64,000 bases of DNA, taken from positions 12,283 to 76,282 of the forward strand of contig PIVT01000004.1 of NCBI GenBank assembly GCA_003353845.1, in the 5' to 3' direction. This DNA comes from Pseudomonadota bacterium (GTDB lineage: Bacteria; Myxococcota_A; UBA9160; JADFDR01). Both the position numbers and the translations under genes were made by a program. The notes below the pieces were generated by a model that was not told the origin of the DNA, did no database searches, and saw nothing but the letters and a program-made list of their open reading frames with translations. This document shows positions 33,434 through 53,680 of the stretch, piece after piece; the first letter of the stretch is position 1; each line of letters begins with the position of its first letter.

Positions 33434-34056
33434 GAGTCGGCCTCCGCGAGGTCTCGGGTCGCTTTGCTTGCAATGCGCAGTGGTCCGGGTTGCTCGGGTG
33501 TGGGATGTGGATGGGCCAGGGTGCTATTGCCAATGGGCTGGGGGGCGCCCTGGCGCGTGCGCAGCGGTCCGGGGTAGCCGACGAGTTCATACGTGAGTTC
33601 AGACTCGTAGTACATGCCACAGGAAATCTTTAGAAAGGTGGTGTACAAAATTTTCGACAAGCTGCTGTCGTTGTTTCGGAGGGTGTTGAGGTAGTCCGAC
33701 TGCTCTGCGGCGTTGAGTTTGGTAAAGCGCGAGAACTTCCTGGCCAAGGGCAGGGTGCCGTGTTCGAAGATGAGAATGAGCATCTTCATTTGATCTTGCA
33801 TTTTTTCAGGGGCCTCGGACATCAACTCGTCGAAGCGTTCCACGGCACCTGCTTCGCGAATGTCCAACTCGTCGGGTTGGGTGACGGGCAGGTAGGTTTC
33901 CATGATGCTTTGGAGAACGTGAAATTCTTTGTCGGAGAATACCTTCAGTCGGGCCGTGGCCTCGGGGTAATGTCTTCCGCAGCCCGGCAGCAAGCTCAGG
34001 GCCGTCAGCCCCAAGGCGCCGCTACTGCCCCGTTGCAGAAAACCGCGGCGATTCAT
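33430..34056 (-). CDS. gluconate 2-dehydrogenase subunit-3-like small subunit with Tat signal
   Basis: Twin-arginine signal MNRRGFLQRGSSGALGLTALSLL. ATGA overlap with the GMC gene. Start set at ATG 34056 (34134 also possible); the ORF track extends to 34284. Confidence 0.7.
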   Translation of the reverse strand: MNRRGFLQRGSSGALGLTALSLLPGCGRHYPEATARLKVFSDKEFHVLQSIMETYLPVTQPDELDIREAGAVERFDELMSEAPEKMQDQMKMLILIFEHGTLPLARKFSRFTKLNAAEQSDYLNTLRNNDSSLSKILYTTFLKISCGMYYESELTYELVGYPGPLRTRQGAPQPIGNSTLAHPHPTPEQPGPLRIASKATRDLAEADS

Positions 34057-34544
34057 CAAGGGCTCGTTGCTGTTGAAGGGGGCGGATTCTTGCAGTTCTG
34101 CTAGCACTGGATGTCCGGGGGGCGAGGGGCTCATTGGGGGACTAGGATAGCCAGAATTTAATTTCCGTCCACTGTACGGTAAATAGACCCTGCGGTCTAA
34201 GGTCGCTTTACAGCCCCCTGGAGGATCGTTACTTTCTGGCCGCCCGAAGCCAGCCTCGCCCCCCTTTGAGCCTGTATTGGCCAATCTGGTCGCTTTTGAG
34301 CTGAATCGGTGCAGATCTCGCGAGAGGCACTTCCCGAGTACTGCAAAAGTACGGCAAAAGGACTGCGAGATTTTCTAAAAGGATTCCGGGCGGACCTCCC
34401 ACCTGGAGCAGGTTATCCACAGAGAGTGCTCCAGCAGGTGCAAGCGGGCCTCAGTGAGTCGAGTTTGTGGGCAGCCACGTGCTGTGATCAGTTTGAGCAT
34501 GGGTCGAGAGGCTTGTCTCATGCGGAGATGTAGAAGGAAAATCC

Positions 34545-35396
34545 ATGGATAAGCGGATGACAGAAAGTGAAGTGATCGCCGAGCTTCGCGATGGGATGAC
34601 CATCGGAATTGGCGGTTGGGGACCTCGGCGCAAGCCCATGTCCCTGGTGCGCGAGATTCTGCGTTCCGATCTAAAAGATCTCACCGTCGTGGCCTACGGT
34701 GGTCCCGAAGTGGGCCTATTGGCCAAGTATGGGAAAATCAAGAAACTGATCTACGGTTTTGTTTCGCTGGATTCCATCCCCTTGGAACCACATTTCCGCA
34801 TTGCGCGCCAGACGGCCAGCATCCCCGAAATTGTCGAATTGGATGAAGGCATGTTCCAGTGGGGCTTGTATGCCGCCAGCTTGCGCTTGCCTTTCTTGCC
34901 CACGCGCGCAGGACTCGGTTCGGACGTGTTGAAATACAACCCCGACATCAAGACGGTGAAGTCGCCCTATGCCGATGCGGAAGAGTTGGTGGCCATGCCC
35001 GCTTTGAATTTAGACGTGGCGCTGATTCACATGAATCGAGGCGATGCGGGCGGCAACGGCATGGCCCTGGGTCCCGACCCCTTCTTTGATGATCTCTTTT
35101 GTGGCGCGGCTGAAAAAGCTTATATGTCCGTGGAGAAGCTCGTCGAAACCAAAGAACTGTTGGAGCAGGGGCCGATTCAGTGCCTCAAGATCAATCGCTC
35201 CATGGTCCAAGGCGTGGTGGAAGCCCCCAACGGTGCACATTTTACGGAGTGTCCTCCCGATTACTTCCGCGACGAGGCCTTCCAGAAGAAGTACGCCGCG
35301 ACAGCCAAAGACGAACAAGCCTGGGATGATTTCAAAAAGACCTACTTGGATGTTTCTGAGGCGGATTACCAGAAGGCGGTGAAGGCCAATGACTGA
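34545..35396 (+). CDS. CoA-transferase family I subunit A (IpdA / glutaconate-CoA-transferase-like)
   Basis: DGMTIGIGGWG...RKP N-terminal motif and ALIHMNRGDAGGNG; 283 aa. Confidence 0.85.
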   Translation: MDKRMTESEVIAELRDGMTIGIGGWGPRRKPMSLVREILRSDLKDLTVVAYGGPEVGLLAKYGKIKKLIYGFVSLDSIPLEPHFRIARQTASIPEIVELDEGMFQWGLYAASLRLPFLPTRAGLGSDVLKYNPDIKTVKSPYADAEELVAMPALNLDVALIHMNRGDAGGNGMALGPDPFFDDLFCGAAEKAYMSVEKLVETKELLEQGPIQCLKINRSMVQGVVEAPNGAHFTECPPDYFRDEAFQKKYAATAKDEQAWDDFKKTYLDVSEADYQKAVKAND

Positions 35397-36153
35397 TATT
35401 CAGCGAGACGAGTACTGTGCTGTGGCCATTGCCGAAGCCTTTCGCGGCGATGGTGAGATTCTGATCAGCCCCATTGGTAACCTGCCCGCCATTGGCGCGC
35501 GCCTGGCGAGACTCTCCTTTGAGCCGGGGCTCATGCTTTCTGACGGTGTGTCCAAGCTCTTTGGCAATACGCCGGGCTGGGGCGTGAAGGGTGCTGAGAA
35601 AATCATCGAGGGGTATGTCCCTTACCGCACCATCTTCGACATCGTGTGGTCAGGCAAGCGCCATGTCATGATGGGTGCGACTCAAATCGATAAGTACGGC
35701 AATCAAAACATCGCTTGCATCGGTGATTTTAAACAACCCAAGAGCCAGCTTTTGGGTATGCGCGGTGCGCCGGGAAATACCATTTCACATCCCACCAGCT
35801 ACTGGGTTTCCAAACACAGCACGCGTGTGTTTGTGGAGAAGGTAGATGTCGTGTCGGGCGTCGGTTACGACCGCGCGCGCGAGTTGGGCAGTGCCGCCAA
35901 GTACCACGAAATTCGTCGCGTGGTGACGAACCTGTGTGTGCTCGACTTTGAAACGCCGGACAACCGCATGCGGTTGCGATCCCTGCATCCGGGTGTGACG
36001 GTCGACCAGGTGGTGGAAAACACAGGCTTTGAACTGGTGATCCCCGACGACGTGCCCGAAACCCGCGCCCCCAACGCTGAAGAACTGCGTCTTCTGCGGG
36101 AAGACATTGATCCCAATGGCAATGGTAAGAAGGAAGTACCAACTGAGGCCTGA
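35389..36153 (+). CDS. CoA-transferase family I subunit B (IpdB-like)
   Basis: 8-nt overlap with subunit A. Has MMGATQIDKYGNQN and GAPGN motifs. I see no canonical (S)ENG glutamate motif. Confidence 0.8.
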   Translation: MTDIQRDEYCAVAIAEAFRGDGEILISPIGNLPAIGARLARLSFEPGLMLSDGVSKLFGNTPGWGVKGAEKIIEGYVPYRTIFDIVWSGKRHVMMGATQIDKYGNQNIACIGDFKQPKSQLLGMRGAPGNTISHPTSYWVSKHSTRVFVEKVDVVSGVGYDRARELGSAAKYHEIRRVVTNLCVLDFETPDNRMRLRSLHPGVTVDQVVENTGFELVIPDDVPETRAPNAEELRLLREDIDPNGNGKKEVPTEA

Positions 36154-36180
36154 ACCCGGGGCCTGAAAGAGGAAACGAAA

Positions 36181-37248
36181 TTGTCCGCTGCGCTGAATAC
36201 GAAGATCTGTGAAATGTTTGGAGTGAAGTACCCGGTCATTCAAACGGCCATGGGTTGGGTGTCCACCCCGGAGCTCACGGCGGCGACGGCCAATGCCGGT
36301 GGCATGGGCTTCCTGGCGGCTGCCACCATCAAGCCGGAGGAAGTGGGTAAGGAAATTCAGCGGGTGCGTGCACTCACAGACAAGCCCTTTGGTGTGAACT
36401 TCCTCATGGAAGCGCCCGGCGCCGACATTATTGTCGACAGCATCCTCGAGCACGGTGTTCGCGCGGCCAGCTACAGTCGTTCTCCCAATCCCGAATTTAT
36501 CAAGCGTTTCAAAGATGCCGGCGTGCTCTGTGTACCTACGGTGGGAGCTCCTCGACACGCCGAAAAAGCCGTGCAGTTGGGAGCTGACATTATTGTGTGT
36601 CAAGGCGGAGAGGGGGGTGGCCACACTGGAACCATCGCCTCGACCATCTTGTTGCCAGCGGTGCTGGACATGGTAGATGTACCGGTGGTGGCTGCTGGCG
36701 GTTTCAAGGACGGACGCGGTTTGGTGGCGGCCTTGGCCTATGGTGCCAGTGGTATTGCCATGGGAACGCGCTTCTTGCTCACCAAAGAAAGCCCCGTACC
36801 TCCGGCCACGGCCGAGCGTTACTTGAAGGCCAACGTCAAGAACAACGCGGAGCAGATCAAAGTAACCACTCAGGTCGATGGCATGCCTCAGCGCTGCGTG
36901 GTGAATGAACTTGTACACGAATTGGAAAATGCCAGCACGGTGGGTTTGTTGTGGCAGTCCTTTAAGAGCGCCATGGAGTATCGCAAGCTGAGCGGTGCGG
37001 GCATGTTTGAAATCCTGAATTCGGCCTTGCAGATGCGCAAGAGCAACGGACTCACCCTTTCACAAACGCTTATGGGCGCCAATGCCCTGGCCATGGTGAA
37101 AGCGGCCATGATTGATGGCGATCCCATTCACGGTGTATTGCCTAGCGGTGTGGTGGCAGGTTTGATCGACGACCTGCCCAGTGTGGACGAATTAATTCAG
37201 AGCATCATGCGCGAAGCAGAGGAACGCTTGGCGGCGCTTTCGGTCTGA
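36181..37248 (+). CDS. nitronate monooxygenase family FMN enzyme (IpdC-like acyl-CoA/enoyl reductase candidate)
   Basis: FGVKYPVIQTAMGWVS, IIVCQGGEGGGHTG and VVAAGGFKDGRG motifs. TTG start 6 nt after GAGGAA. Confidence 0.85.
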   Translation: MSAALNTKICEMFGVKYPVIQTAMGWVSTPELTAATANAGGMGFLAAATIKPEEVGKEIQRVRALTDKPFGVNFLMEAPGADIIVDSILEHGVRAASYSRSPNPEFIKRFKDAGVLCVPTVGAPRHAEKAVQLGADIIVCQGGEGGGHTGTIASTILLPAVLDMVDVPVVAAGGFKDGRGLVAALAYGASGIAMGTRFLLTKESPVPPATAERYLKANVKNNAEQIKVTTQVDGMPQRCVVNELVHELENASTVGLLWQSFKSAMEYRKLSGAGMFEILNSALQMRKSNGLTLSQTLMGANALAMVKAAMIDGDPIHGVLPSGVVAGLIDDLPSVDELIQSIMREAEERLAALSV

Positions 37249-37289
37249 AGCTTGAACATTCAGGTCGCTGAAGAGAAGAGGAGACGAGT

Positions 37290-38057
37290 ATGAGCAAGCC
37301 CTTTAAGACGTCCATTAAAGATGGCATTGCAGAGATGATTTTCAATCATCCTCCCGTCAACGCCTTTTCCAGCGCGGGCTGGGCGGCCATTGCTCAGGAA
37401 ATCGAAGAGCTAGGCCAGAAAGCGGATGTGCGCGTCATTATCATCGCAGCCGAAGGGCGCGGCTTTTGTGCCGGTGTCGACATTAAAGAGTTGGCGGCTG
37501 AGGGCGACTCCCTCATCGTCAAGGTGAATAAAGGCAATTACGACACCTTCAAGGCCATCCACTTGAATCCACGGCCCGTCATCGTGGCCGTTCACGGATT
37601 TGTGTTGGGGGGTGGGATCGGAATCAGTGGCGCAGCGGATATTTTGGTGGCCAGCGAGTGCGCCACCTTTGCCGTGCCCGAGGTGGATCGCGGTGCCATG
37701 GGCGGAGGCGCTCACTTGCAGCGCATGTTCCCCGTGCAAAAGGTCCGGTACATGTATTTCACGGGCGAGCCCATTGATGCCCAAGAAGCCTATCGCTTGG
37801 GTGCCGTCGAGCAGGTGGTCCCCCGAGAAAAGCTGTTGGATACAGCCCGCGAGATCGCGGGCAAGATTGCCGAGAAGAGCCCGCGCATGATTGCCCTGGC
37901 CAAAGAAGCACTCACCGGTATCGAAGACGGAAACCTGGAAGACAAGTATCGATCCGAACAGGGCTTTACCTTGGAGGCTTACGCTTCACCGGACTCGCAG
38001 GAGGCGCGTGATGCCTTCGTCGATAAGCGAGACGCGACATTTAGTGAGAAGAAATAA
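37290..38057 (+). CDS. enoyl-CoA hydratase/isomerase (crotonase) family
   Basis: Crotonase oxyanion motifs FCAGVDIKE and VHGFVLGGGIGISGAADI; 255 aa. Confidence 0.9.
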   Translation: MSKPFKTSIKDGIAEMIFNHPPVNAFSSAGWAAIAQEIEELGQKADVRVIIIAAEGRGFCAGVDIKELAAEGDSLIVKVNKGNYDTFKAIHLNPRPVIVAVHGFVLGGGIGISGAADILVASECATFAVPEVDRGAMGGGAHLQRMFPVQKVRYMYFTGEPIDAQEAYRLGAVEQVVPREKLLDTAREIAGKIAEKSPRMIALAKEALTGIEDGNLEDKYRSEQGFTLEAYASPDSQEARDAFVDKRDATFSEKK

Positions 38058-38125: not shown

Positions 38126-39295
38126 ATGGAATTACGGTTTACTGCGGAGCAAGAGGCCTTTCGCAAAGAGGCCCGAGAGTGGCTCGAAGCCAATGTGCCC
38201 AAAGAGCCCTTGCCATCAATGGATACCAAAGAGGGTTTTGCCGCTCATCGCGAGTGGGAAAAAACTTTGGAGAAGGGTCGCTGGGGCATGGTTTGCTGGC
38301 CCGAAGAATTGGGCGGCCGCGGCGCCGACCTGTTCGATTGGCTGATCTTTGAAGAGGAAGCCTATCGCGTGGGTGCGCCTCTGCGTGTGAACCAAAACGG
38401 CATCTACTTGCTCGGCCCGACTCTCATGGAATACGGCACGGAAGAGCAAAAGAAACGTTTCTTGCCGCCCATGGCTTCCAGCGATGAAGTGTGGGCGCAG
38501 GCGTGGTCCGAACCCAACGCGGGCTCTGACATGGCGGCCATTCGCACCACGGCTTTTCTAGACGCAAGCGGTGAGAACTACATCGTCAATGGTCAGAAGA
38601 CCTGGGCCTCACGCGGATGTTGGGCCGATTGGGGCTTTGGTTTGTTTCGCACCGAGGAAGGTTCGGAACGGCACAAGGGTCTTTCCATGATGGTCTTCCC
38701 CAATGATCTCGAAGGAATCACCATCAGTCCCATTGAACAATTGGATCGCGAGACGGGTTTTGCCGAGATGTTCTTCGACAACGTGAAGGTGCCAGTGAAA
38801 TACCTGTTGGGCGAAGAAGGCAAGGGCTGGAACGTGGCCATGGCCACCGCCGGCTTCGAGCGTGGGCTCATGCTGCGCAGTCCCGCGCGTTACCAAGCCA
38901 CCGCACGCAAACTGGTGGATTTGTACAAAGAGCACGAAGACACGGCACCGGTATCCGCTCGCGAAGCCGTGGCCAAGTGTTGGATGAAGGCCGAGCAGTA
39001 TGCCCTCAACACTTATCGCACGGTGAGCTTCTTGAAAGCGGGAGGCAAGATTGGCTCCGAGGCCAGTTTGAACAAGATCTTCTGGTCGGAGCTGGACATT
39101 GAGATGCATGAGTTGGCGCTCAGCATTCTCGACGCCGTGGGTGAAATTCTGCCTTACGCGCCAGCCGCCAAGGGATTGGTCGGGCACTGGTTGGATGGTT
39201 ACATGTTCGCATTGGCGGGTCCCATCTATGCCGGGACCAATGAAATTCAGCGCAACGTAATTGCCGAGCGTCTGCTTGGCTTGCCGAGGAAGTAG
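38126..39295 (+). CDS. acyl-CoA dehydrogenase, probable alpha subunit of a heteromeric ACAD
   Basis: ACAD motifs WSEPNAGSD, GQKTWAS and the C-terminal IYAGTNEIQRNVIAERLLGLPR. Confidence 0.9.
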   Translation: MELRFTAEQEAFRKEAREWLEANVPKEPLPSMDTKEGFAAHREWEKTLEKGRWGMVCWPEELGGRGADLFDWLIFEEEAYRVGAPLRVNQNGIYLLGPTLMEYGTEEQKKRFLPPMASSDEVWAQAWSEPNAGSDMAAIRTTAFLDASGENYIVNGQKTWASRGCWADWGFGLFRTEEGSERHKGLSMMVFPNDLEGITISPIEQLDRETGFAEMFFDNVKVPVKYLLGEEGKGWNVAMATAGFERGLMLRSPARYQATARKLVDLYKEHEDTAPVSAREAVAKCWMKAEQYALNTYRTVSFLKAGGKIGSEASLNKIFWSELDIEMHELALSILDAVGEILPYAPAAKGLVGHWLDGYMFALAGPIYAGTNEIQRNVIAERLLGLPRK

Positions 39296-39298
39296 ATC

Positions 39299-40354
39299 AT
39301 GGATTTTAGTTTCTCTGAAGATCAGAAAATGTTTCAAGAAACCCTACGCGACTTTTTGACGGCGGAGCACACGTCGGCAACCATTCGCGAACTTTGGGAT
39401 AGCGAGACGCGCCGCTCCAGTGAACTCTGGCAGCAGCTTTGCGAGATCGGAATTATGGGTCTCTTGGTGCCGGAAGAGTATGACGGCATGGGCATGGATG
39501 AGGTCGATCTCGTTCTGTGTCTGGAAGAAATGGGTACACATGCCTTCGCCGAGCCGGTGATCCCCACCTTGGTGGGTACGCGCTTACTGGCCGACCTGGC
39601 CGACAAGAGCCTGGCGCAAGAGTGGTTGCCAAAGGTGGCCGGAGGCGAAGCCATTCTGGCGGTGCAATATCCCGAGAGTCCTTTCGTGCAAGATGCACAC
39701 GTGGCCAACTTGCTCATTCTGCAAAAGGATGGCGAGTTGCACGCCTTGACCCCGGACCAGGTGAAGCTCACACGTCAGGACTCCAACGATCCCAGCAATT
39801 GCCTGTTCTCTGTCGACTGGACACCTTCGGCAGATACGCTCATTGCTCAGGGTGAGGAAGCGGCGAAACTGAGTGCCGAGGCCTTTGATCGCGGTGCACT
39901 GGCAGCGGCGGCACAACTCCTGGGTTGTGGGCAACGCATGATTCACATGGCCTGTGAGTATGCCAGTGAGCGGAAGCAATTCGGCGTATTCATTGGAACC
40001 TTCCAAGCCATTAAGCACATGTGTTCCAACGCACAGGTTCAGGTGGAGTATGTGCGCCCCGCGGTGTATCGCGCGGCCTTTTCCCTTGCGAACAACAGCG
40101 TGAATCGGAGCGTCAACGTTTCCATGGCCAAGTTGGCTGCAGGGGAAGCTGCACACACGGCTTCGCGCGTCAGCATGCAGGTGCACGGCGGGCAGGGGTA
40201 TACCTGGGAGCAGGATTTGCACTTGTGGATGCGCCGCGCTTGGAGCCTCGATTTAGCCTGGGGTTCGAAGCAGATGCACAGCCAGCGCATTGCCTCCATC
40301 GTCATCGACCAAGGCGTGCCGACGGCACCCCTGGGAGAGAGTTGGCTGGCTTGA
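39299..40354 (+). CDS. acyl-CoA dehydrogenase family, probable beta subunit of a heteromeric ACAD
   Basis: Starts 3 nt after the preceding stop. Has the ACAD C-terminal domain (ERKQFGVFIGTFQAIKHMCSN, QVHGGQGYTWE) but a shorter, divergent N/middle domain (351 aa). Confidence 0.85.
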   Translation: MDFSFSEDQKMFQETLRDFLTAEHTSATIRELWDSETRRSSELWQQLCEIGIMGLLVPEEYDGMGMDEVDLVLCLEEMGTHAFAEPVIPTLVGTRLLADLADKSLAQEWLPKVAGGEAILAVQYPESPFVQDAHVANLLILQKDGELHALTPDQVKLTRQDSNDPSNCLFSVDWTPSADTLIAQGEEAAKLSAEAFDRGALAAAAQLLGCGQRMIHMACEYASERKQFGVFIGTFQAIKHMCSNAQVQVEYVRPAVYRAAFSLANNSVNRSVNVSMAKLAAGEAAHTASRVSMQVHGGQGYTWEQDLHLWMRRAWSLDLAWGSKQMHSQRIASIVIDQGVPTAPLGESWLA

Positions 40355-40411: not shown

Positions 40412-40852
40412 ATGAGTGATAAACCCAAGGTTCCGGCGGTAGAGGGCTGGTTTACCATGGATGAGGCATCGCCTCATCTGATTGGTAGCCAGTGCTCCAA
40501 GTGCAAGAGCTATTACTTTCCCAAGCAATCACTTTTTTGTCGAAATCCCGAGTGTGATTCCGAGGAATTCGATGAAGTGGAGCTCTCGAATCGTGGAAAG
40601 ATCTGGTCCTACACCAATAATTGTTACAAGCCGCCCGCCCCCTACATTCAGGTGACGGATCCCTTTGAGCCCTTTGCTTTGGCCGGTGTTCAGTTGGAAA
40701 AAGAAGGCATGATCATTTTGGGCATGCTCTCCGATGGCGTCACTGTGGAAGATGTGAAAGTAGGCCAGGAGGCCGAGTTGGTACTGGGCACGCTCTTTGA
40801 AGATGACGAGTGTGAAAAACTGGTTTGGAAGTGGAAGCCCATCGCCGGCTGA
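40412..40852 (+). CDS. DUF35 OB-fold / zinc-ribbon protein (thiolase or aldolase partner)
   Basis: Rubredoxin-like CSKC...CRNPEC followed by an OB-fold segment; 146 aa. Sits directly upstream of the SCP-x-type thiolase. Confidence 0.8.
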   Translation: MSDKPKVPAVEGWFTMDEASPHLIGSQCSKCKSYYFPKQSLFCRNPECDSEEFDEVELSNRGKIWSYTNNCYKPPAPYIQVTDPFEPFALAGVQLEKEGMIILGMLSDGVTVEDVKVGQEAELVLGTLFEDDECEKLVWKWKPIAG

Positions 40853-40876
40853 GCCGCGCTTGGAAGGAAAATAATT

Positions 40877-42073
40877 ATGTCGAATCAAGAAGTCGCGATT
40901 CTCGGCGTTGGAATGCATGAGTGGGGCAAGTGGGAAGACGGGAACTTCGTCGCCTACGGTGTAAAAGCCTGTCGGGATGCTTTGCAGGATGCCGGTGTAG
41001 CCTGGAAGGACATTCAAATGGTTTCGGGGGCGGCCACCATGCGCTGTGGTTATCCCGGTTATGTGGCGGGTGCGACTTTTGCTAACGCTTTGGGTTGGCA
41101 GGGTGCACGTGTGAATACCTCTTACGCCGCTTGTGCCTCGGGTTCTCAGGCCCTGTCCGCCGCGCGTTCAGCCATTGCCGCGGGTGAATGTGAAGTGGCC
41201 TTGGTGGTAGGCTCGGACAAGACACCCAAGGGCTTTCTCGCCCCGCAAAAAGGCGATCGGCCCGATGATCCCGATTGGCAACGCTTTCGTTTAATCGGCG
41301 CCACGAATCCTGCCTTCTTCGCGTTCTACGCACGACGGCGAATGGATTTGTATGGTGCGACCGAGGAAGACTTCGCGCGCGTCAAGGTGAAGAACGCCAA
41401 GAACGGTTTGCACAATCCCAAGGCACGTTATCGCAAGGAGTTCTCCATGGAGAGTGTGTTGGGATCGGCCATGGTGTGCGATCCCCTGCGCTTATTTGAA
41501 ATTTGTGCCACCAGCGATGGGGCCGCTGCCATTGTGGTGTCTAGCTTGGACTACGCCAAGAAAGTGGGGAAGGCCGATGCACCGCGCATTGCTGCCATCT
41601 CAACGGTGACGCCGGACTACCCCTGCGCCACGGTAGAGATGCCCGACATTGCGACAGATTCCAGTGCCTCGGTGACGGTGCCGGCCCTTGAGTTCAAGAG
41701 TTCCGTACCCCACGCGGCCTACGAGGAAGCGGGCATTGGCCCCGAAGATCTATCCCTGGCCGAGGTGTACGACTTAAGTTCCGCCTTGGAACTCGATTGG
41801 TACGAGAACCTGGGCCTGTGTGGTCAAGGTGAAGCCGAAAAACTATTGCGTTCAGGCGACACCGAAATCGGTGGACGCATTCCCGTGAACCCCAGTGGCG
41901 GATTGGCTTGCTTCGGCGAAGCGGTTCCGGCCCAGGCTTTGGCTCAGGTTTGTGAGTTGACCTGGCATTTGCGCGGTGAAGCGGGTGCGCGGCAGGTGGA
42001 GGGCGCAAAGGTAGGCATTACAGCCAACCAAGGTCTCTTCGGCCACGGCTCCTCGGTGATCGTGAAGAAGTAG
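40877..42073 (+). CDS. SCP-x/Ltp-type thiolase-fold protein
   Basis: SYAACASGSQAL (Cys nucleophile retained), TSDGAAAIVV and NPSGGLACFGEA motifs; 398 aa. Confidence 0.85.
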   Translation: MSNQEVAILGVGMHEWGKWEDGNFVAYGVKACRDALQDAGVAWKDIQMVSGAATMRCGYPGYVAGATFANALGWQGARVNTSYAACASGSQALSAARSAIAAGECEVALVVGSDKTPKGFLAPQKGDRPDDPDWQRFRLIGATNPAFFAFYARRRMDLYGATEEDFARVKVKNAKNGLHNPKARYRKEFSMESVLGSAMVCDPLRLFEICATSDGAAAIVVSSLDYAKKVGKADAPRIAAISTVTPDYPCATVEMPDIATDSSASVTVPALEFKSSVPHAAYEEAGIGPEDLSLAEVYDLSSALELDWYENLGLCGQGEAEKLLRSGDTEIGGRIPVNPSGGLACFGEAVPAQALAQVCELTWHLRGEAGARQVEGAKVGITANQGLFGHGSSVIVKK

Positions 42074-42093: not shown

Positions 42094-43104
42094 TTAGCGC
42101 GGCGCGGGCTTCATATGCTTGGCGCCGCGCATCCACTTTATGGTGTCACTATAGGTCGCTTCCAATTCCCGGAAGCTGATGTCCAACTCCGATTGAAGCT
42201 TACTCGCATCGGCAACGGCCCATTGGGTGACATAGGTCATGGCTTCACGTGTCATGGGAAACTCGAAGGGGACGAAGCGCTTGATCTTGTCGCACAAGGT
42301 TCCCAAGGCCAATAATAAACCCGGTGGCGCCGAGATGCGGCGAACGCGTCGACCCGTTGCGGCTTCAATCAAGTCTGCAATCTCCGCCCAGCTCTGAAAG
42401 TGCCCCGTGGTCAGGTAGCGCGCTTCTTGAGGGGTGGACGGACAGCCGCGCTCCAAGAGCAGGCGATGGGTGTGCGCGAGGTCGCGCACGTCGACGTATT
42501 GCAAGCCCGTGGTAGTAATCAGCATGAGCAACTCGGCAAACAAGCGCAGCGCCTTGTTGCCTTCGCTGAACTTGGGGTCGTCGGGTCCGATCACCGAGGT
42601 GGGGTAGGTCACCTGAATCGGGGCCCCACTTTCTTGCAACTCGCGCACATATTGCTCGCTGATCACTTTGGAGTGGCCGTAAGGGTTGCTCGATGTGCCC
42701 AGGGGAGTGTTTTCATCGATGTGTGAGATGCCGGGAGAAAAAAGGGCCAATGCGCTGGAGACGTAGAGGATGTTTTGGATCCCCAACTCGTGCGCGCCAC
42801 CCACCACGTTCTTGACGCCGTCGACATTGATGCGGATCACCTGATCCGCGTTGCGTTCACCCAAGGTCACCATGGCTGCGCTGTGTAGGACGGCGTCACA
42901 GTCGCGCATGTTGGAACGCACGAGATCCGCATCGGTCATATCGCCCTGAACAATATCCTCTACTTGGAATCCAAGATTTTTGTAATAACGCTGCACGGTG
43001 GAGGGGTCGCGCAACAAGAGGCGGACTTCATGCCCGGCCTTGAGCAACTCCATGGTGCTGTGTGCACCGACGAATCCCCCAGCTCCTGTAATAAAAATAC
43101 GCAT
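42094..43104 (-). CDS. NAD-dependent epimerase/dehydratase family (extended SDR, 3-beta-HSD-like)
   Basis: MRIFITGAGGFVGAH Rossmann motif and a YGHSK catalytic YxxxK. Start set at ATG 43104; the ORF track extends to 43218. Confidence 0.8.
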   Translation of the reverse strand: MRIFITGAGGFVGAHSTMELLKAGHEVRLLLRDPSTVQRYYKNLGFQVEDIVQGDMTDADLVRSNMRDCDAVLHSAAMVTLGERNADQVIRINVDGVKNVVGGAHELGIQNILYVSSALALFSPGISHIDENTPLGTSSNPYGHSKVISEQYVRELQESGAPIQVTYPTSVIGPDDPKFSEGNKALRLFAELLMLITTTGLQYVDVRDLAHTHRLLLERGCPSTPQEARYLTTGHFQSWAEIADLIEAATGRRVRRISAPPGLLLALGTLCDKIKRFVPFEFPMTREAMTYVTQWAVADASKLQSELDISFRELEATYSDTIKWMRGAKHMKPAPR

Positions 43105-43381
43105 ACTTGGAGGAGGATAGGGGAAACCACGCGCAGCGCGCTCTTGTTCCAGTCGCTCGGCCGGGTCGCAGGTACTTCTTTGTGAAATACCCGCAGACGG
43201 GGCGCTTTGCCGCACCAAAAGAGGGGCGTATAGCTCTCTTAGTCTCTATTATTACCGGTCGACAACGAGCCTTCTCCTCAACGGGCCATCTAGTGCCTGG
43301 AGTCGTTTTGCCTGAAGTAATTACCCTGGAGTCGTCTAGTTGGAGTTCGCCCCCGGACTCCCAAAGACATGGAGAATGAAA

Positions 43382-44530
43382 ATGCCTGAAGCCTATATCG
43401 TAGATGCTGTACGTACCCCCATTGGCCGCCGCAAGGGTAGCTTTGCCGAAGTTCACGCAGGTGACTTGGGCGCCCACTCCATCAAGGCCCTCGTAGAGCG
43501 CACCGGAATTGATCCCTCCATCGTGGATGATGTGATCTTTGGTTGTGTGGACACTATCGGTCCTCAAGCTGGAGATATCGCTCGTACCTGTTGGTTGGTC
43601 GCGGGCATGCCCGAGGAAGTGCCAGGCACCACGGTAGACCGCCAGTGCGGGTCCTCTCAGCAGGCTGTGCATTTCGCTGCCCAGGCCGTCATGAGTGGAA
43701 CTCAAGATGTGGTTGTGGCCGGTGGTGTTCAGAACATGACCCAGATTCCCATCTCTGCGGCCATGTTGGCGGCAGAACCCTTTGGCTTCTCGGACCCCTT
43801 CTCGGGATCCAAGGGCTGGGTAAAGCGCTATGGCAACACCCCGGTTGATCAATTTAGTTCTGCCGAGATGATGGCCAAGAAGTGGGACATCAGCCGGGAG
43901 GAGATGGAAGTCTACGCGCTCGAGAGTCATACGCGAGCGATACACGCCATCAAGGAGGGACGCTTCAAGAATGAAATCGCTCCCTTCGGTGACTTCGATA
44001 CGGATGAAACCCCGCGCGAGAGTTCCTTGGAGAAGATGGCCACCCTCAAGGTGCTCATGGAAGGTGGCCGACTGACGGCCGCTGTTTGCAGTTCGCTCTG
44101 CGACGCTTCGGCCGCTTTGTTGGTGGTGAGCGAACGCGCGCTGAAAGAGTACGGGCTCAAACCACGCGCCCGTGTGCATCACATCAGCGTGCGTGCTGCG
44201 GATCCGATCTGGATGTTGACAGCACCTATCCCCGCTACGGAGTATGCGCTGAAGAAAGCCGGCATGACCTTGAACGATATTGATCTGATTGAGATCAACG
44301 AGGCCTTTGCGCCGGTGGTGATGGCATGGCAAAAGGAAACGGGTGCCGACCTGGCCAAGGTGAATGTGAACGGTGGCGCCATTGCGCTGGGGCATCCCTT
44401 GGGCGCCACGGGTGCACGGCTGATGACCACCTTGCTCAATGAGTTGGAGCGCACGGGTGGACGCTACGGCCTGCAGACCATGTGTGAGGGTGGAGGACAG
44501 GCCAACGTCACCATTCTTGAGCGCCTCTAA
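43382..44530 (+). CDS. thiolase (acetyl-CoA C-acyltransferase)
   Basis: VDRQCGSSQQA, NVNGGAIALGHPLGATGARL and CEGGGQA motifs. ATG 43382 lies 7 nt after GGAG. Confidence 0.9.
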   Translation: MPEAYIVDAVRTPIGRRKGSFAEVHAGDLGAHSIKALVERTGIDPSIVDDVIFGCVDTIGPQAGDIARTCWLVAGMPEEVPGTTVDRQCGSSQQAVHFAAQAVMSGTQDVVVAGGVQNMTQIPISAAMLAAEPFGFSDPFSGSKGWVKRYGNTPVDQFSSAEMMAKKWDISREEMEVYALESHTRAIHAIKEGRFKNEIAPFGDFDTDETPRESSLEKMATLKVLMEGGRLTAAVCSSLCDASAALLVVSERALKEYGLKPRARVHHISVRAADPIWMLTAPIPATEYALKKAGMTLNDIDLIEINEAFAPVVMAWQKETGADLAKVNVNGGAIALGHPLGATGARLMTTLLNELERTGGRYGLQTMCEGGGQANVTILERL

Positions 44531-44597: not shown

Positions 44598-45506
44598 ATG
44601 GGTATTTGTGATGGACGTGTAGTGATTGTTACGGGAGCTGGAACCGGGCTTGGCAAGGAGCACGCGCTGGAGTTCGGGCGGCAGGGCGCCAAGGTTGTGG
44701 TTTGTGACCTCGGTGTTACGCGCTCTGGAGAAGGCGGTGATAAGAAACCTGCAGAGGATGTGGTAGCGGAAATCAAAGCCGCGGGTGGTGAAGCCATTCC
44801 TTTCTACTGCGACGTTACGGACTTCAACGCTTGTGGTGAAATGGTGAAGACGGCCATTGAAACCTTTGGCGGCCTCGACGTTGTCGTAAACAACGCAGGC
44901 TTCTTGCGCGACCGCATGTTTGCCTCTTGCGGCGAAGATGAGTGGGACGCAGTGATCAAGGTGCACTTGAAGGGTCACTTCTGTACGTCGCGCCACGCGG
45001 TTGAATATTGGCGAGGTCAAGCCAAGGCGGGCAACGAAGTCAGCGGTCGCATCATCAACACCAGTTCCGGTGCAGGGTTGCAGGGTAGCGTCGCGCAGTG
45101 CACGTACTCGTCGGCCAAGGCGGGCATTGCCGCACTTACTTTGGTTCAATCGGCAGAACTCGGCCGCTACGGCATTACCTCCAACGCCATTTGTCCCTCG
45201 GCGCGCACCCGCATGACCGAAGAAGTGTTCAAAGACATGATGGCCGACGTGGGCGAAGGCGAGTTTGACGCCATGGATCCCTCCAATGTTTCGCCTTTGG
45301 TGGTCTGGTTGGGTTCCAAGGAAGCCGGCGATGTTACGGGTAAGATCTTCGAGGTTGAAGGTGGAAAGATCAGCTTGGCCGATGGCTGGCACAAAGGGCC
45401 TGTGGTTGACAAGGGTGCGCGTTGGGATCCCGCCGAAGTGGGCGGTGCCGTGAAAGAGGTCATGGGCAAAGCCGTTCCCGCGACGCCAGTTTATGGAGCA
45501 AAATAG
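44598..45506 (+). CDS. SDR, MFE-2/17-beta-HSD4 (Hsd4A)-type (3R)-hydroxyacyl-CoA dehydrogenase
   Basis: DGRVVIVTGAGTGLGKEHALEFGRQGAKVVVCDLG followed by a Gly-rich insert, and YSSAK catalytic YxxxK. This pattern matches the N-terminal domain of peroxisomal MFE-2. Confidence 0.8.
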   Translation: MGICDGRVVIVTGAGTGLGKEHALEFGRQGAKVVVCDLGVTRSGEGGDKKPAEDVVAEIKAAGGEAIPFYCDVTDFNACGEMVKTAIETFGGLDVVVNNAGFLRDRMFASCGEDEWDAVIKVHLKGHFCTSRHAVEYWRGQAKAGNEVSGRIINTSSGAGLQGSVAQCTYSSAKAGIAALTLVQSAELGRYGITSNAICPSARTRMTEEVFKDMMADVGEGEFDAMDPSNVSPLVVWLGSKEAGDVTGKIFEVEGGKISLADGWHKGPVVDKGARWDPAEVGGAVKEVMGKAVPATPVYGAK

Positions 45507-45564: not shown

Positions 45565-46704
45565 ATGCACTTTGGATTTACTGAGGAACAAGAAGAGCTG
45601 CGTGAAATGGCGCGAGCTTTTTTGAGTGAGTGTTCGTCTTCGGAGCAGGTTCACGAAGCCATGGAAATGCCCGAGGGTTATGACCCCAAGGTGTGGGAGC
45701 GCATAGGTGCAGAGTTGGGTTGGCCCGCCGTCATTGTTCCCGAGGAATATGGCGGCATCGGCATGACCTACGTCGAACTCATCGCCTTGATGGAAGAGAT
45801 GGGCAAGGCCTTGCTGTGCTCGCCCTTCTTCTCCACGGTGTGCCTGGCTGTAAATACGCTCGTGGAAGCGGGAACCGAGGAGCAAAAACAAGCCTTGTTG
45901 CCCGAGATTGCCGAAGGTCAGCAAACGGCGACCCTGGCCTTTAGCGAGGACAATGGGCGCTGGGACGCCAGTGCGGTGGAAGCCACGGCTAAAAAAACGG
46001 GCGATGGCTTTGTGTTGAACGGTCGCAAGAGTTTTGTGGTGGATGGACACACGGCCGATCACTTGATCATTGCGGCGCGAAGCGAAGGCAGCCAGGGTGA
46101 GGAAGGAATCAGTCTCTTTCTTGTGAAATCAGGTACGCCGGGTCTCGTGATCAAGAAGCTCGACACCTTGGATCAAACTCGCGCTCACGCCAGTGTGGAC
46201 CTTCAAGATCTGCAGGTTCCCGCCTCGGCACTCATGGGCGACGAGGGCGCCGCCTGGCCTGCGCTCAAGCGCTCGCTAGATCTAGCCGCCATCGCCTTGG
46301 CCGCCGAACAAGTGGGTGGTGCTCAGCGTTGCCTGGATATGTCGGTGGAGTATGCCAAGGAGCGCGTGCAGTTCGGTCGCAAGATCGGTTCCTTTCAAGC
46401 GATGAAACACAAGTGCGCCAATATGAGTCTGCAGGTGGAGTCGGCGCGCTCCGCCGTGTACTACGCTGGCTGGGCGGCGTCCGAGAAGGAACCCGATTTG
46501 TCGGAGTTGGCTTCCATCGCCAAGGCCTATGCCTCGGACACCTACTTTTTCTGTGCGGGTGCATCCATTCAAGTTCACGGTGGTGTCGGCTTTACCTGGG
46601 AATACGACTGCCACCTCTACTTTAAGCGCGCGAATTCTTCACAGGTCTTCCTCGGGTCACCGGTCTATCACCGGGAACTTGTCGCACAACACATTGGTCT
46701 GTAA
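45565..46704 (+). CDS. acyl-CoA dehydrogenase
   Basis: ERVQFGRKIGSFQAMKH and QVHGGVGFTWEYD motifs; 379 aa. Confidence 0.9.
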   Translation: MHFGFTEEQEELREMARAFLSECSSSEQVHEAMEMPEGYDPKVWERIGAELGWPAVIVPEEYGGIGMTYVELIALMEEMGKALLCSPFFSTVCLAVNTLVEAGTEEQKQALLPEIAEGQQTATLAFSEDNGRWDASAVEATAKKTGDGFVLNGRKSFVVDGHTADHLIIAARSEGSQGEEGISLFLVKSGTPGLVIKKLDTLDQTRAHASVDLQDLQVPASALMGDEGAAWPALKRSLDLAAIALAAEQVGGAQRCLDMSVEYAKERVQFGRKIGSFQAMKHKCANMSLQVESARSAVYYAGWAASEKEPDLSELASIAKAYASDTYFFCAGASIQVHGGVGFTWEYDCHLYFKRANSSQVFLGSPVYHRELVAQHIGL

Positions 46705-46766: not shown

Positions 46767-47552
46767 ATGGCAATGAAGGATCCCTTGGGTTTTGCTGGCA
46801 AGGTGGTCATCGTTACAGGTGGTGGTAAGGGCGTCGGGATTGGCATTACGACGCGCTTTCTGGAGGCCGGTGCAGATGTCATCATCTGCGGGAGAAGTGC
46901 GCCTGAGGGCTTGCCTGCCGCTTCAGGGAAAGAAGCCATTTTCATAGAGGCCGATGTCAAAGACATCGAACAAATCGAGAAAGTGGTGCAAGCCGCCGTC
47001 CATCGCTTCGGCCGTTTGGATTGCTTGGTGAACAACGCTGGTGGTTCTCCGCCTGTTGATGCGGCCAGCGTTTCTCCGCGCTTTTCAGCCTCGATCCTGG
47101 CGTTGAATCTCACTGCACCCCTCTGGTTTTCTCAAGCCGCCAATCGTGTGATGCAGGAGCAAGCTGAGGGCGGCTGTATCGTGAATATCGCCAGCGTTAG
47201 TGGTACACGGCCTTCACCGGGAACGGCGGCCTACGGAGCTGCCAAGGCGGGCTTGCTCAACCTCACCCAAACCCTCGCTGTGGAATGGGCGCCTCGGGTG
47301 CGTGTCAACGCGGTAACGGCCGGGCTGATCAAGACAGAAAAGGCCCACATGCATTACGGCGACGAAGAAGGCATCGCCTCCGTAGAAAAAACGATTCCTC
47401 TGGGACGCCTGGCCAATCCCACGGATATCGGCGATGTCTGCTTGTTCCTGGCTTCGCCTTTGTCGAGTTATGTGAGCGGGGCCAATATTCTCACGCACGG
47501 TGGTGGCGAGAGACCCGCCTTTATGGATGCTGCCAAGAATACCAGGCCTTGA
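46767..47552 (+). CDS. SDR family oxidoreductase
   Basis: VVIVTGGGKGVGIG, NNAG and YGAAK motifs. Confidence 0.9.
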   Translation: MAMKDPLGFAGKVVIVTGGGKGVGIGITTRFLEAGADVIICGRSAPEGLPAASGKEAIFIEADVKDIEQIEKVVQAAVHRFGRLDCLVNNAGGSPPVDAASVSPRFSASILALNLTAPLWFSQAANRVMQEQAEGGCIVNIASVSGTRPSPGTAAYGAAKAGLLNLTQTLAVEWAPRVRVNAVTAGLIKTEKAHMHYGDEEGIASVEKTIPLGRLANPTDIGDVCLFLASPLSSYVSGANILTHGGGERPAFMDAAKNTRP

Positions 47553-52404: not shown

Positions 52405-52866
52405 CTACTCAGGAAAGTAGCGGCTGATGGTGTCGATGATGAGGGCGGGTCGATCACTGCCTTCAATTTCTACCGTGACGCGCACGGTGGATTGAATGGC
52501 ACCCTTCTTGACCTCTTCGGCTGCAATGAGTTCACCGCCACCACGAATCTTGGAGCCCACGGGAACGGCTGCGGGGAAGCGCACCTTGTCCGTGCCGTAG
52601 TTCACGCCCATGGAGATTCCCTGCACGTCGATAATTTCGGGCAGGAATCGATTGACCAGGGAAAGGGTGAGGTAACCGTGTGCGATGCAGGTGCCAAAGG
52701 GACCCTCGGCGGCCTTGGCCGGGTCCACGTGAATCCATTGGTGATCGTCGGTGGCGTCCGCAAAGGTGTTGATGCGATCTTGGGTGATTTCCATCCATTC
52801 GCTGTAGCCCAGGTGGTTGCCAACGGCGGAGAGAAGTTCGGAGGGTGTTTTGAATACAGTAGGCAT
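52405..52866 (-). CDS. MaoC-like (R)-specific enoyl-CoA hydratase (hot-dog fold)
   Basis: FADATDDHQWIHVDPAKAAEGPFGTCIAHGYLTLS hydratase-2 motif; 153 aa. Confidence 0.85.
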   Translation of the reverse strand: MPTVFKTPSELLSAVGNHLGYSEWMEITQDRINTFADATDDHQWIHVDPAKAAEGPFGTCIAHGYLTLSLVNRFLPEIIDVQGISMGVNYGTDKVRFPAAVPVGSKIRGGGELIAAEEVKKGAIQSTVRVTVEIEGSDRPALIIDTISRYFPE

Positions 52867-52897: not shown

Positions 52898-53680
52898 TCA
52901 GGCGCGTTGGCTGCTGACGGAGACGATTTCCCCTGTCATGTAACTGGTGTAGTCGCTGGCAAGCATGACCATGACATTGGCAACTTCCCAAACTTCTGCG
53001 GCACGCCCGAAGGCTTCTTTTTTGGTGAGTTCTGCTAATAGCTCGTCCGTTGTGACCTTGGCGAGGAACTTGTGCATGGCCAGGCTCGGCGAGACGGCAT
53101 TGATGCGAATCCCGTAATCAGCCGCCTCCAAAGCAGAGCAACGAGTGAGCGCCATGACACCGGCTTTGGCGGCTGCGTAATGGCACTGGCCTTTTTGTGC
53201 GCGCCAACCCACCACCGAGGCATTGTTGATGATGGCACCGCTCTTGCGTGTGTACATGTGCTTTAGTGCTGCGCGTGTCATACGCATGGTCCCGGTTACC
53301 GTAATGTCCATGACAAGGTTCCACTGCTCGTCGGTCATGTCCACCAGTGGAACTTCACCGCCCAGGCCCGCATTGTTGATGAGTACGTCGATGTGTCCCA
53401 TCTCGGCAATGGCGGCATCGACCAATCCTTGGACGTCTTCTTCCTGGGTGACATTGCAAATTCGGCTACCCACGGGTTGGTCGCCGACCTTCTCTAGCTC
53501 TGCGACGGCTTCGGCCAGGCGGCGCTCGTGAACGTCGCTGATAAACACGCGCGCACCTTCTTCGATGCAACGTTTGGCCGCGGAGAAGCCTATGCCGGTT
53601 CCGGCAGCAGCGGTGATCAATACAGTTTTACCTGCGAGCAGGTTATGTCCTTCGACATAGGGAGGGGCCGTTTGGCTCAT
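52898..53680 (-). CDS. SDR family oxidoreductase with an atypical TAAAGTGIG cofactor motif
   Basis: GKTVLITAAAGTGIGFS, NNAG and YAAAK motifs. Confidence 0.9.
   Translation of the reverse strand: MSQTAPPYVEGHNLLAGKTVLITAAAGTGIGFSAAKRCIEEGARVFISDVHERRLAEAVAELEKVGDQPVGSRICNVTQEEDVQGLVDAAIAEMGHIDVLINNAGLGGEVPLVDMTDEQWNLVMDITVTGTMRMTRAALKHMYTRKSGAIINNASVVGWRAQKGQCHYAAAKAGVMALTRCSALEAADYGIRINAVSPSLAMHKFLAKVTTDELLAELTKKEAFGRAAEVWEVANVMVMLASDYTSYMTGEIVSVSSQRA

Follow-up and report, generated by a model that had tools for sequence, protein, structure and literature searches.

A predicted steroid ring C/D catabolic cluster headed by ipdA, ipdB, ipdC and echA20 orthologues in a Myxococcota_A bacterium

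The ipdA-ipdB-ipdC-echA20 block

The window analysed here is a 64-kb stretch of contig PIVT01000004.1 (assembly GCA_003353845.1), assigned by GTDB to Myxococcota_A. A block of four co-directional genes lies at 34545–38057. As the initial annotation described, open reading frame (ORF) calling and Pfam assign these genes to two subunits with a CoA-transferase fold, a nitronate monooxygenase (NMO)-family flavoenzyme and a crotonase, and the first two genes overlap by 8 nt (ATGACTGA). Reciprocal best hits, shared NCBIfam families, IpdAB active-site residues and a gene order conserved across more than 20 genomes identify them as orthologues of ipdA, ipdB, ipdC and echA20, which bears out the match first proposed for them. 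They probably form the ring-opening core of the catabolic pathway for 3a-alpha-H-4-alpha-(3'-propanoate)-7a-beta-methylhexahydro-1,5-indanedione (HIP), the two-ring compound that remains once steroid rings A and B have been destroyed. The roles of IpdF, IpdC, EchA20 and IpdAB in this pathway have been established with purified enzymes and mutants (PMC5380842).

The G+C content of the block region is even (0.56–0.57, in a window that ranges from 0.50 to 0.60) and thus gives no hint of recent insertion. The ipdC gene is assigned a TTG start with AGAGGA upstream. This start is preferred over an alternative ATG 11 codons downstream because similarity to FabK and Tsukamurella IpdC already sets in within the first five to seven residues.

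As IpdC and EchA20 lack solved structures, an annotated canonical block was sought as a reference, and the Tsukamurella tyrosinosolvens record L082 was compared by reciprocal BLASTP. Its annotated order is cytochrome P450, 'steroid 3-ketoacyl-CoA thiolase', epimerase, two short-chain dehydrogenases/reductases (SDRs), enoyl-CoA hydratase, two CoA-transferase subunits and nitronate monooxygenase, which is the order of M. tuberculosis Rv3545c–Rv3553. All four window genes pass this reciprocal check, which had been suggested at the outset, with identities of 64% (IpdA), 58% (IpdB), 49% (IpdC) and 44% (EchA20); paralogues in the window or the Tsukamurella locus reach only 28–32%. Clusters on Novosphingobium aromaticivorans pNL2 and a Vibrio alfacsensis plasmid, both syntenic with the scd order of Comamonas TA441, served as proteobacterial references. 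Correspondence to TA441 rests on gene order and its authors' descriptions, with the comparison run via the N. aromaticivorans and Vibrio sequences.

Among all solved structures, the IpdAB matches are those of R. jostii RHA1 and M. tuberculosis (6CO6, 6CO9, 6COJ and 6CON). Window IpdA matches RHA1 IpdA (PDB 6CO6_A) with E=2e-102, compared with 3e-18 for glutaconate CoA-transferase, and window IpdB matches 6CO6_B with E=3.5e-87, compared with 3e-20 for the glutaconate CoA-transferase beta subunit. Glutaconate CoA-transferase is the best match to a true transferase and is roughly 80 orders of magnitude weaker than IpdAB. NCBIfam transferase models score about 40 bits against cutoffs of 128–315 and are therefore missed widely. 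In Pfam, the adjacent, overlapping genes encode an alpha/beta pair of the class I CoA-transferase fold, as in the IpdAB heteromer.

The catalytic glutamate that class I transferases carry in their beta subunit has Gly57-beta as its counterpart in RHA1 IpdB (PMC5380842). In the window protein, Gly53 (within LSDGVS) aligns with this glycine and occupies the place of the transferase glutamate. The initial annotation had noted the loss of the canonical (S)ENG motif from IpdB, and indeed the protein sequence contains no ENG tripeptide anywhere. Its view that GATQIDKYGNQN (residues 95–106) takes the place of SENG does not hold, because this motif is kept in the characterised RHA1 IpdB as GANQIDRHGNQN; the true position is Gly53. 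The G-x-x-Q-(I/V)-D-x-x-G-N-x-N segment in the GATQIDKYGNQN region is presumably a general feature of the transferase fold.

The catalytic glutamate of IpdA was located through the only residue that differs between the chains 6CO6_A (wild type, EMDEGM) and 6COJ_A (EMDAGM). Window IpdA has ELDEGM, and the mutated glutamate is thus kept as E101. The equivalent residue of RHA1 IpdA, Glu105, was reportedly proposed as the catalytic base by Crowe et al. (PNAS, 2018). Class I CoA-transferases (glutaconate, 1POI; 3-oxoacid) share the two-subunit alpha/beta fold (PF01144) with window IpdAB, but they carry the beta catalytic glutamate and (S)ENG motif, whereas window IpdB has neither and falls short of the transferase cutoffs. 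These features support the prediction that window IpdAB is a COCHEA-CoA hydrolase rather than a CoA-transferase.

Window IpdC is 49% identical over its full length to Tsukamurella IpdC and to the NMO genes at the ScdK position in N. aromaticivorans and Vibrio, compared with only 30–32% to paralogous NMO genes of the window or Tsukamurella. Its best solved-structure match is FabK (E=2e-55), and FabK (enoyl-acyl carrier protein reductase II; 7L00, 2Z6I) shares its FMN-dependent TIM-barrel NMO fold. However, window IpdC fails the FabK equivalog (242 bits, cutoff 453), as does Tsukamurella IpdC (248 bits), and groups with the IpdC and ScdK-position genes instead. By orthology, window IpdC would act on a CoA thioester rather than on a FabK-type acyl carrier protein thioester.

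The crotonase passes the NCBIfam PRK07938 equivalog (370 bits, cutoff 260), the same model that the Tsukamurella Rv3550-position gene passes with 423 bits. It is 68% (Vibrio) and 53% (N. aromaticivorans) identical to the ScdY-position crotonases, compared with only 25–27% to those at the ScdN position and 28–32% to the other crotonase in the Tsukamurella comparison. The TA441 authors equate IpdAB with ScdL1L2, IpdC with ScdK, IpdF with ScdG, EchA20 with ScdY and FadA6 with ScdF, and describe ScdN as a later hydratase that acts on the ring-opened product. The Comamonas names first given to the flavoenzyme and the crotonase, ScdG and ScdN, are therefore to be replaced by ScdK and ScdY.

The surrounding ring C/D cluster

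The block heads an operon with the order ipdA-ipdB-ipdC-echA20-ACAD-ACAD-DUF35-SCPx thiolase-thiolase-SDR-ACAD-SDR, where ACAD denotes an acyl-CoA dehydrogenase (Table 1). About 5 kb further on, a second locus on the minus strand encodes an ACAD, an SDR and a MaoC-type hydratase (53756, 52898 and 52405), and a hybrid kinase/response-regulator gene separates this unit from a FadD3-family ligase gene. FadD3 is the HIP-CoA ligase. The window thus holds four ACAD genes, presumably forming two heteromeric pairs, a FadA6/ScdF thiolase and SDRs that pass PRK07791, PRK07831 and PRK07856. Taken together, these genes appear to make up an essentially complete HIP (steroid ring C/D) pathway.

Table 1. Genes of the predicted ring C/D cluster in the window
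Feature	Position	Strand	Length and evidence
ipdA/scdL1-like alpha subunit, predicted COCHEA-CoA ring-C hydrolase, CoA-transferase fold	34545..35396	+	283 aa; Pfam CoA_trans E=1e-26
ipdB/scdL2-like beta subunit, without CoA-transferase catalytic Glu	35389..36153	+	254 aa; Pfam CoA_trans E=3e-13
ipdC/scdK-like FMN-dependent acyl-CoA (predicted HIEC-CoA-forming) oxidoreductase, NMO/FabK fold	36181..37248	+	355 aa, TTG start; Pfam NMO 1e-75
echA20/scdY-like crotonase (predicted ring-D hydrolase)	37290..38057	+	255 aa; Pfam ECH_1 2e-46
ACAD large subunit, ScdM1/FadE31-position	38126..39295	+	all three ACAD Pfam domains; 60-61% to ACAD after ScdY-position gene (N. aromaticivorans, Vibrio)
ACAD small subunit, ScdM2/FadE32-position	39299..40354	+	N- and C-terminal ACAD domains only, no recognisable middle domain; 39% to second proteobacterial ACAD
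DUF35 (zinc-ribbon + OB fold) partner of SCPx-type thiolase	40412..40852	+	Pfam zf-ChsH2, OB_ChsH2_C
SCPx-type ('lipid-transfer protein') thiolase	40877..42073	+	NCBIfam PRK06059 687 bits, cutoff 424; only 29% to Tsukamurella ltp-like thiolases
Extended SDR (epimerase/3-beta-HSD family), accessory	42094..43218	-	Pfam Epimerase and 3Beta_HSD; HpnA-like 163 bits, SdmB-like (sterol demethylase) 95 bits, both below cutoff
FadA6/ScdF-like 3-ketoacyl-CoA thiolase	43382..44530	+	PRK07801 714 bits, cutoff 591; 65-67% to thiolase after ACAD pair (N. aromaticivorans, Vibrio), 42% to FadA5
SDR, Rv3548c-/ScdE-position (putative 3-hydroxyacyl-CoA dehydrogenase)	44598..45506	+	PRK07791 460 bits, cutoff 373
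ACAD, ScdC-small/IpdE2-like, candidate partner of 53756-54949	45565..46704	+	IpdE2 model 217 bits, below cutoff; 39% to N. aromaticivorans ACAD_20301 (ScdC1-position)
SDR, Rv3549c-position	46767..47552	+	PRK07856 391 bits, cutoff 255; model shared with Tsukamurella Rv3549c-position SDR, 58% identical
MaoC-type enoyl-CoA hydratase, ScdD-position	52405..52866	-	Pfam MaoC_dehydratas 3e-25; 59% to N. aromaticivorans scd-cluster MaoC
SDR, IpdF/ScdG-position (putative ring ketone/alcohol oxidoreductase)	52898..53680	-	PRK07831 447 bits, cutoff 336; 68% to N. aromaticivorans SDR_22557
ACAD large subunit, ScdC-large/FadE30-IpdE1-position	53756..54949	-	ACAD domains; 53% to N. aromaticivorans ACAD_21353
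FadD3-family acyl-CoA ligase (predicted HIP-CoA ligase; ScdA function)	56871..58487	-	NCBIfam NF005801 equivalog 732.6 bits, cutoff 657

Conservation of the cluster was followed in relatives found by an IpdB scan of species-representative genomes (GTDB), of which the best 80 loci (L-numbers) were taken. The first ACAD after echA20 is syntenic in 59 of the 80. The second follows it after a gap of 3 nt, and its best NCBIfam match is an IpdE2-type model (144 bits, below cutoff). The SDRs at 44598 and 46767 are also reciprocal best hits to the Tsukamurella cyp125-fadA5-SDR-SDR-echA20-ipdA-ipdB-ipdC block. SDR 44598 falls into the same NCBIfam model as the Tsukamurella Rv3548c-position SDR and is 60% identical to its Tsukamurella and N. 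aromaticivorans counterparts (non-matching SDRs, ~30–32%), while SDR 46767 shares ~70% identity with the SDR that actinobacterial-type loci carry divergently to echA20 (non-matching Tsukamurella SDRs, ~28–32%). The ORF of the FadA6/ScdF-like thiolase extends to 43340, and homology begins at 43382.

Genes of the second locus also accompany ipd clusters elsewhere. Homologues of ACAD 53756 and SDR 52898 occur together in L001, L002, L024 and L062, a MaoC homologue lies beside the cluster in L015, L021, L045, L051 and L064, and FadD3-family ligase homologues (58–65% identical) adjoin ipd clusters in L006, L010 and L051. In M. tuberculosis H37Rv, ipdF adjoins fadE30 in the same way that SDR 52898 lies next to ACAD 53756.

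Two further acyl-CoA ligases in the window have homologues near ipd genes. The first (8501–10081) has no NCBIfam model above cutoff, and homologues with 50–57% identity immediately precede ipdA in nine or more related loci (L001, L014, L025, L037, L038, L045, L049, L063 and L076). In the window it lies 24 kb from ipdA, by a 431-aa thiolase and TtcA (region 8501–11456 onward), an arrangement shared with L085 (GCA_003353925.1). The second (19694–21310, plus strand) passes PRK07798 (709 bits, cutoff 543), and its 50% identical homologues lie directly downstream of ipdC-DUF35-SCPx in the Acidimicrobiia loci L057, L068, L070 and L071.

The DUF35 gene adjoining the SCPx thiolase is kept in 42 loci. 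This pair (40412–42073) is conserved in window-type and Acidimicrobiia ring C/D clusters; neither the M. tuberculosis KstR2 regulon nor the TA441 scd set has a counterpart. The pair may stand in for ScdJ or have a branched 3-oxoacyl-CoA as its substrate. The extended SDR, which lies antisense within the cluster, is missing from all 80 loci. It was rejected as a 3-beta-hydroxysteroid dehydrogenase, as it falls below all NCBIfam cutoffs and its PDB matches are uninformative.

The genes divergently upstream of ipdA (31904–34284, minus strand) encode a GMC-family FAD oxidoreductase and a small subunit that resembles 'gluconate 2-dehydrogenase subunit 3'. The oxidoreductase (31904–33433) was considered as a cholesterol oxidase and rejected: the similarity is weak and confined to the N-terminal FAD domain (65 bits against a cutoff of 850), and its PDB matches are generic GMC proteins.

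Further genes of the window follow other themes. Neutral-lipid storage is represented at 13232–19441 and 59781–62443 by three WS/DGAT wax-ester/triacylglycerol synthases (13232–14788, 18035–19441 and 59781–61304), two LipL-like beta-lactamase-fold esterases (14807–15964 and 16815–18005), an alpha/beta hydrolase (15986–16834), a phasin (61952–62443) and a TetR protein with a PF13972 C-terminal domain (61301–61942). The alpha/beta hydrolase was rejected as an HsaD/TesD candidate, its best matches being PcaD-like and below cutoff. A second NMO-family ORF at 24076–25530 (homology from ~24406) lies beside an opposite-strand TetR gene (23641–24309), and the called ORFs overlap; it is 49% identical to the second NMO at the edge of the Tsukamurella steroid region (L082:138–1241). 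Unrelated to the cluster, a glycosyl-transferase family 2 (GT2) gene, a GH38 gene for an alpha-mannosidase-like protein of 853 aa and another GT2 gene at 26366–30583 are followed by a PilZ-domain gene (30669–31361).

TtcA, the tRNA 2-thiocytidine synthetase, is the only housekeeping-like gene in the window. Its 428-aa ORF (12199–13485, minus strand) overlaps the start of the WS/DGAT gene at 13232 and is over-extended at the 5' end, as its homologues of ~277 aa cover only the C-terminal 60–70%. It matches Gammaproteobacteria at 62–70% (Congregibacter, Halieaceae, Marinomonas, Zobellella and Microbulbifer) and a 'Deltaproteobacteria' metagenome-assembled genome (MAG) at 88%. These matches would suggest, with low certainty, an uncultured and probably marine gammaproteobacterium-like host, whereas labels of Myxococcota or 'Deltaproteobacteria' are borne by the nearest relatives of the cluster. 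Rfam and tRNA scans found nothing in the window, and a promoter/terminator consensus scan returned sites no more numerous than in shuffles.

Proposed pathway and the source of HIP

The pathway steps are taken from Mycobacterium and Rhodococcus (PMC5380842) and from the Comamonas TA441 work, and their order here is a proposal. The FadD3-family ligase (56871–58487) would thioesterify HIP, after which one round of beta-oxidation, by the ACAD pair 53756/45565, the MaoC hydratase 52405, the SDR 44598 and the thiolase 43382, would strip the propionate side chain. The IpdF-like SDR 52898 and the flavoenzyme IpdC would then set the oxidation state to give the enone HIEC-CoA, and the EchA20/ScdY crotonase would hydrolyse the five-membered ring D to COCHEA-CoA. 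IpdAB would open the six-membered ring C by retro-Claisen-type hydrolysis, with alpha Glu101 as the base and no CoA-transferase mechanism. A thiolase, either the FadA6/ScdF-like enzyme (43382) or the DUF35/SCPx pair, would free acetyl-CoA and leave 4-methyl-5-oxo-octanedioyl-CoA, of which the ACAD pair 38126–40354 (ScdM1M2/FadE31-32-like) would begin the final beta-oxidation.

Several observations weigh against this assignment. Substrates are assigned by orthology at 44–64% identity, and the groups working on Mycobacterium and on Comamonas differ as to exactly which substrates these enzymes use. For the DUF35/SCPx pair, neither model organism offers an assigned step. The window also lacks two enzymes of the Comamonas scheme, the ScdN-type hydratase and a classical ScdJ thiolase; tblastn with N. 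aromaticivorans and Vibrio proteins found no orthologue of the ScdN-type hydratase or of TesB/VOC in it. No KstR2-like regulator was found in the window (the TetR at 23641–24309 reaches just E=2e-4 with KstR2 and matches other TetRs far better), and the KstR2 operator ANCAAGNNCTTGNT has no one-mismatch site upstream of the ipd, thiolase, ACAD-SDR or fadD3 genes. Ring A/B genes are likewise absent from the 64 kb, to which statements on their absence refer unless the flanks of relatives are named: there is no Rieske ORF (motif screen), no TesB/VOC, KSI, NTF2 or P450 homologue (tblastn), and no KstD-type flavoprotein among the annotated ORFs. This agrees with the initial annotation, which saw no Kst/Ksh/Hsa-type genes in the window. 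Genes for side-chain degradation or uptake are absent from the 64 kb as well. No ring A/B genes were found within 10 kb of annotated window-type relatives either.

KstR2 and its operator define the actinobacterial regulon, not the pathway. One-mismatch ANCAAGNNCTTGNT sites are enriched in the window, with 10 found against 2.0 expected (none of 100 shuffles reaches 10; for example 9711–9724, 32187–32200 and 45802–45815). These sites were rejected as operators, as no cluster gene has one upstream and the majority sit within ORFs; the enrichment is probably a codon-composition effect.

In many known degraders, A/B-ring and C/D-ring genes lie in separate clusters (PMC4810484), and their absence from 64 kb therefore says little. 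HIP could come from ring A/B genes in another part of the genome, from a route independent of oxygen, or from HIP-like compounds that are taken up. High-GC relatives were screened for A/B genes by motif and tblastn, as greedy longest-ORF calls gave antisense artefacts there. Across all loci, the Rieske-motif screen returned one ORF each in the Polyangiaceae loci L010 and L018. In L010 (CAZDNG010000003.1, an uncultured Polyangiaceae MAG), this ORF matches KshA (4QDC) with E=1e-74, and its neighbour matches 3-oxosteroid 1-dehydrogenases (7P18, 7e-57; 4C3X, 3e-44). On these matches, at least one cluster of the wider family is physically linked to genes of the predicted 9,10-seco pathway. The gene order at L010:16076–20573 is an actinobacterial-type ipd cluster, a luciferase-like monooxygenase, a KstD/AcmB-like flavoprotein and the KshA homologue. 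At L018:11040–14832, a matching Rieske-motif ORF, identified at motif level, lies by an actinobacterial-type ipd cluster.

A rival account holds that the cluster is a stand-alone C/D module without ring A/B machinery, which either scavenges HIP-like hydrindanone acids from other degraders or processes a non-steroid bicyclic or alicyclic acid (for example, terpenoid-derived) that enters as a CoA ester. It fits the lack of KshA, KstD, TesB/HsaC, KSI and P450 genes in the 64 kb, the HpnA/SdmB-like extended SDR inside the cluster, and the GMC oxidoreductase pair that occupies the place where classical proteobacterial clusters have tesB, directly upstream of scdL1. It also fits the housekeeping genes annotated in the flanks of window-type loci (L022, L036 and relatives), among them those for LeuA, a Mur ligase and an aminotransferase. 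However, A/B and C/D genes are separate in many degraders (PMC4810484), with Pseudomonas examples among them, every enzyme of the window cluster has an orthologue in the steroid pathway, and the ligase scores above the FadD3 equivalog cutoff. In addition, related actinobacterial-type clusters in two Polyangiaceae MAGs adjoin a KshA-type Rieske gene, with KstD and KshA homology confirmed in L010, the one checked. This account is therefore considered unlikely, although it deserves to be kept in mind. The initial suggestion that the true substrate could be another alicyclic or terpenoid CoA ester retains some standing, but it is weakened by the presence of a nearly whole HIP pathway that includes a HIP-specific ligase family.

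The last reading, a generic short-chain acyl-CoA block in which a glutaconate/3-oxoacid CoA-transferase, a FabK-like reductase and an ordinary enoyl-CoA hydratase act without ring cleavage, can draw on the generic Pfam families, the FabK structure match and the JGI label 'acyl CoA:acetate/3-ketoacid CoA transferase' for homologues, but it is effectively refuted by a beta subunit without the glutamate essential for transferase chemistry, the wide shortfall against the transferase and FabK models, the overwhelming similarity to IpdAB and surrounding genes that are all C/D-ring orthologues. The initial annotation would have been contradicted by proteins grouping with glutaconate or 3-oxoadipate CoA-transferases and FabK-type reductases in a genome with no other steroid genes; what was found instead is an IpdAB pair far closer to the IpdAB structures, an IpdC below the FabK cutoff and further C/D-ring genes in the window. 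Degradation of HIP thus remains the preferred function of the cluster.

Relatives and comparison with known systems

IpdB-like proteins are abundant in metagenomes, with E<=1e-30 for 7997 of 8000 scored candidates. In the best 80 loci from species-representative genomes, IpdB is 61–72% identical to the window protein. Most of these loci come from MAGs labelled Myxococcota, Polyangia or 'Deltaproteobacteria'; Binatia, Acidimicrobiia and a single Gammaproteobacteria MAG are also represented. The 12-gene order from ipdA through the final SDR recurs in more than 20 of the 80, at a mean identity to the window of at most 67%. Identity matrices separate three types: actinobacterial, window and classical proteobacterial. 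The actinobacterial type takes in Tsukamurella, Acidimicrobiia and also Polyangiaceae MAGs. A mosaic signal is evident in these matrices, which are based on identities rather than trees: window IpdA and IpdB are actinobacterial-like, and EchA20 is nearest to the Vibrio gene.

The nearest relative, L081, is metagenomic and 92% identical at the nucleotide level over 10.5 kb. Three segments are cleanly deleted from it: the GMC oxidoreductase with its small subunit upstream of ipdA, 36 codons within the first ACAD, and the epimerase that is embedded in the cluster. The first is a 2.0-kb deletion equivalent to window 32004–34024, which leaves both ends of the GMC gene pair, and the third covers the epimerase/extended SDR (window 42125–43132). 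These genes are therefore dispensable accessories. The 108 nt (36 codons) at window 38873–38980 are missing from the first ACAD gene of L081, which is 91–92% identical and encodes 353 aa; the difference is either a deletion in L081 or an assembly difference. In L081, ipdA has the PilZ gene as its upstream neighbour.

Ring C/D (HIP) catabolism is the point at which known steroid routes converge, and it includes virulence determinants in M. tuberculosis. Myxococcota are otherwise known as sterol producers. In comparative surveys, the aerobic 9,10-seco pathway is limited to Actinobacteria and Proteobacteria (PMC4810484, PMC5790920), and marine OM60 and SAR86 Gammaproteobacteria have already been predicted to degrade steroids (PMC4810484). 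As the enzymology is already understood, the addition made here is mainly distributional: a complete predicted HIP module in an uncultured lineage, with a layout common to dozens of MAGs labelled Myxococcota, 'Deltaproteobacteria', Binatia and Gammaproteobacteria. Should the hosts be without ring A/B genes, HIP-like intermediates would act as a public good shared in steroid turnover; should they possess them, steroid degraders would be a broader group than thought. Either way, IpdAB would be a convenient marker gene for environmental surveys.

A more speculative and rather improbable extension takes the window as an example of a third, separate type of ring C/D cluster: its order is scd-like, its IpdAB is actinobacterial-like, tesB and scdN are missing, and a DUF35/SCPx pair is added. 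Such a type would be widespread in uncultured MAGs labelled Myxococcota, Binatia and Gammaproteobacteria that are not known as steroid degraders, and would work as a stand-alone module on HIP-like two-ring acids from other degraders or on host or prey sterol remnants. Steroid mineralisation in sea and soil would then be a matter of cross-feeding rather than a single-organism process.

In gene content, the window resembles the KstR2-regulon HIP pathway of M. tuberculosis and RHA1 (Rv3548c–Rv3553, Rv3556c and Rv3559c–Rv3564). Both have orthologues of IpdABC, EchA20 and two SDRs, a FadD3-family ligase, a FadA6-type thiolase, heteromeric ACADs, the IpdA glutamate and the IpdB glycine. The window differs in that echA20 follows ipdC rather than preceding ipdA, and the SDR pair is co-directional and downstream rather than divergent. 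It also adds a DUF35/SCPx thiolase pair and a MaoC hydratase, and its host is not an actinobacterium.

In gene order, the closer parallel is the TA441 scd cluster. A construct description gives the TA441 order as tesB-scdL1-scdL2-scdN-scdK-scdY-scdM1-scdM2-scdF (10.1101/2023.02.02.526765). This corresponds to the N. aromaticivorans/Vibrio order of VOC dioxygenase, CoA-transferase subunits A and B, hydratase (~299 aa), NMO, hydratase (~251 aa), two ACADs and thiolase, followed by SDR, two ACADs, SDR, MaoC, KSI and a second thiolase. The window shares the order L1-L2-K-Y-M1-M2-...-F-E and the C-G-D unit, with counterparts 39–68% identical (via N. aromaticivorans/Vibrio). Unlike the scd cluster, it has no tesB beside scdL1, no ScdN-type hydratase between L2 and K, and no KSI-like or NTF2 genes. 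A DUF35/SCPx thiolase lies between M2 and F, and the C-G-D unit is split off on the opposite strand, 5 kb away. Window IpdA and IpdB are closer to actinobacterial sequences (64/58%) than to classical proteobacterial ones (51–54/41–44%). The four-gene set is thus a new example of the known steroid ring C/D system, with a distinctive layout that omits tesB and scdN and includes a DUF35/SCPx pair.

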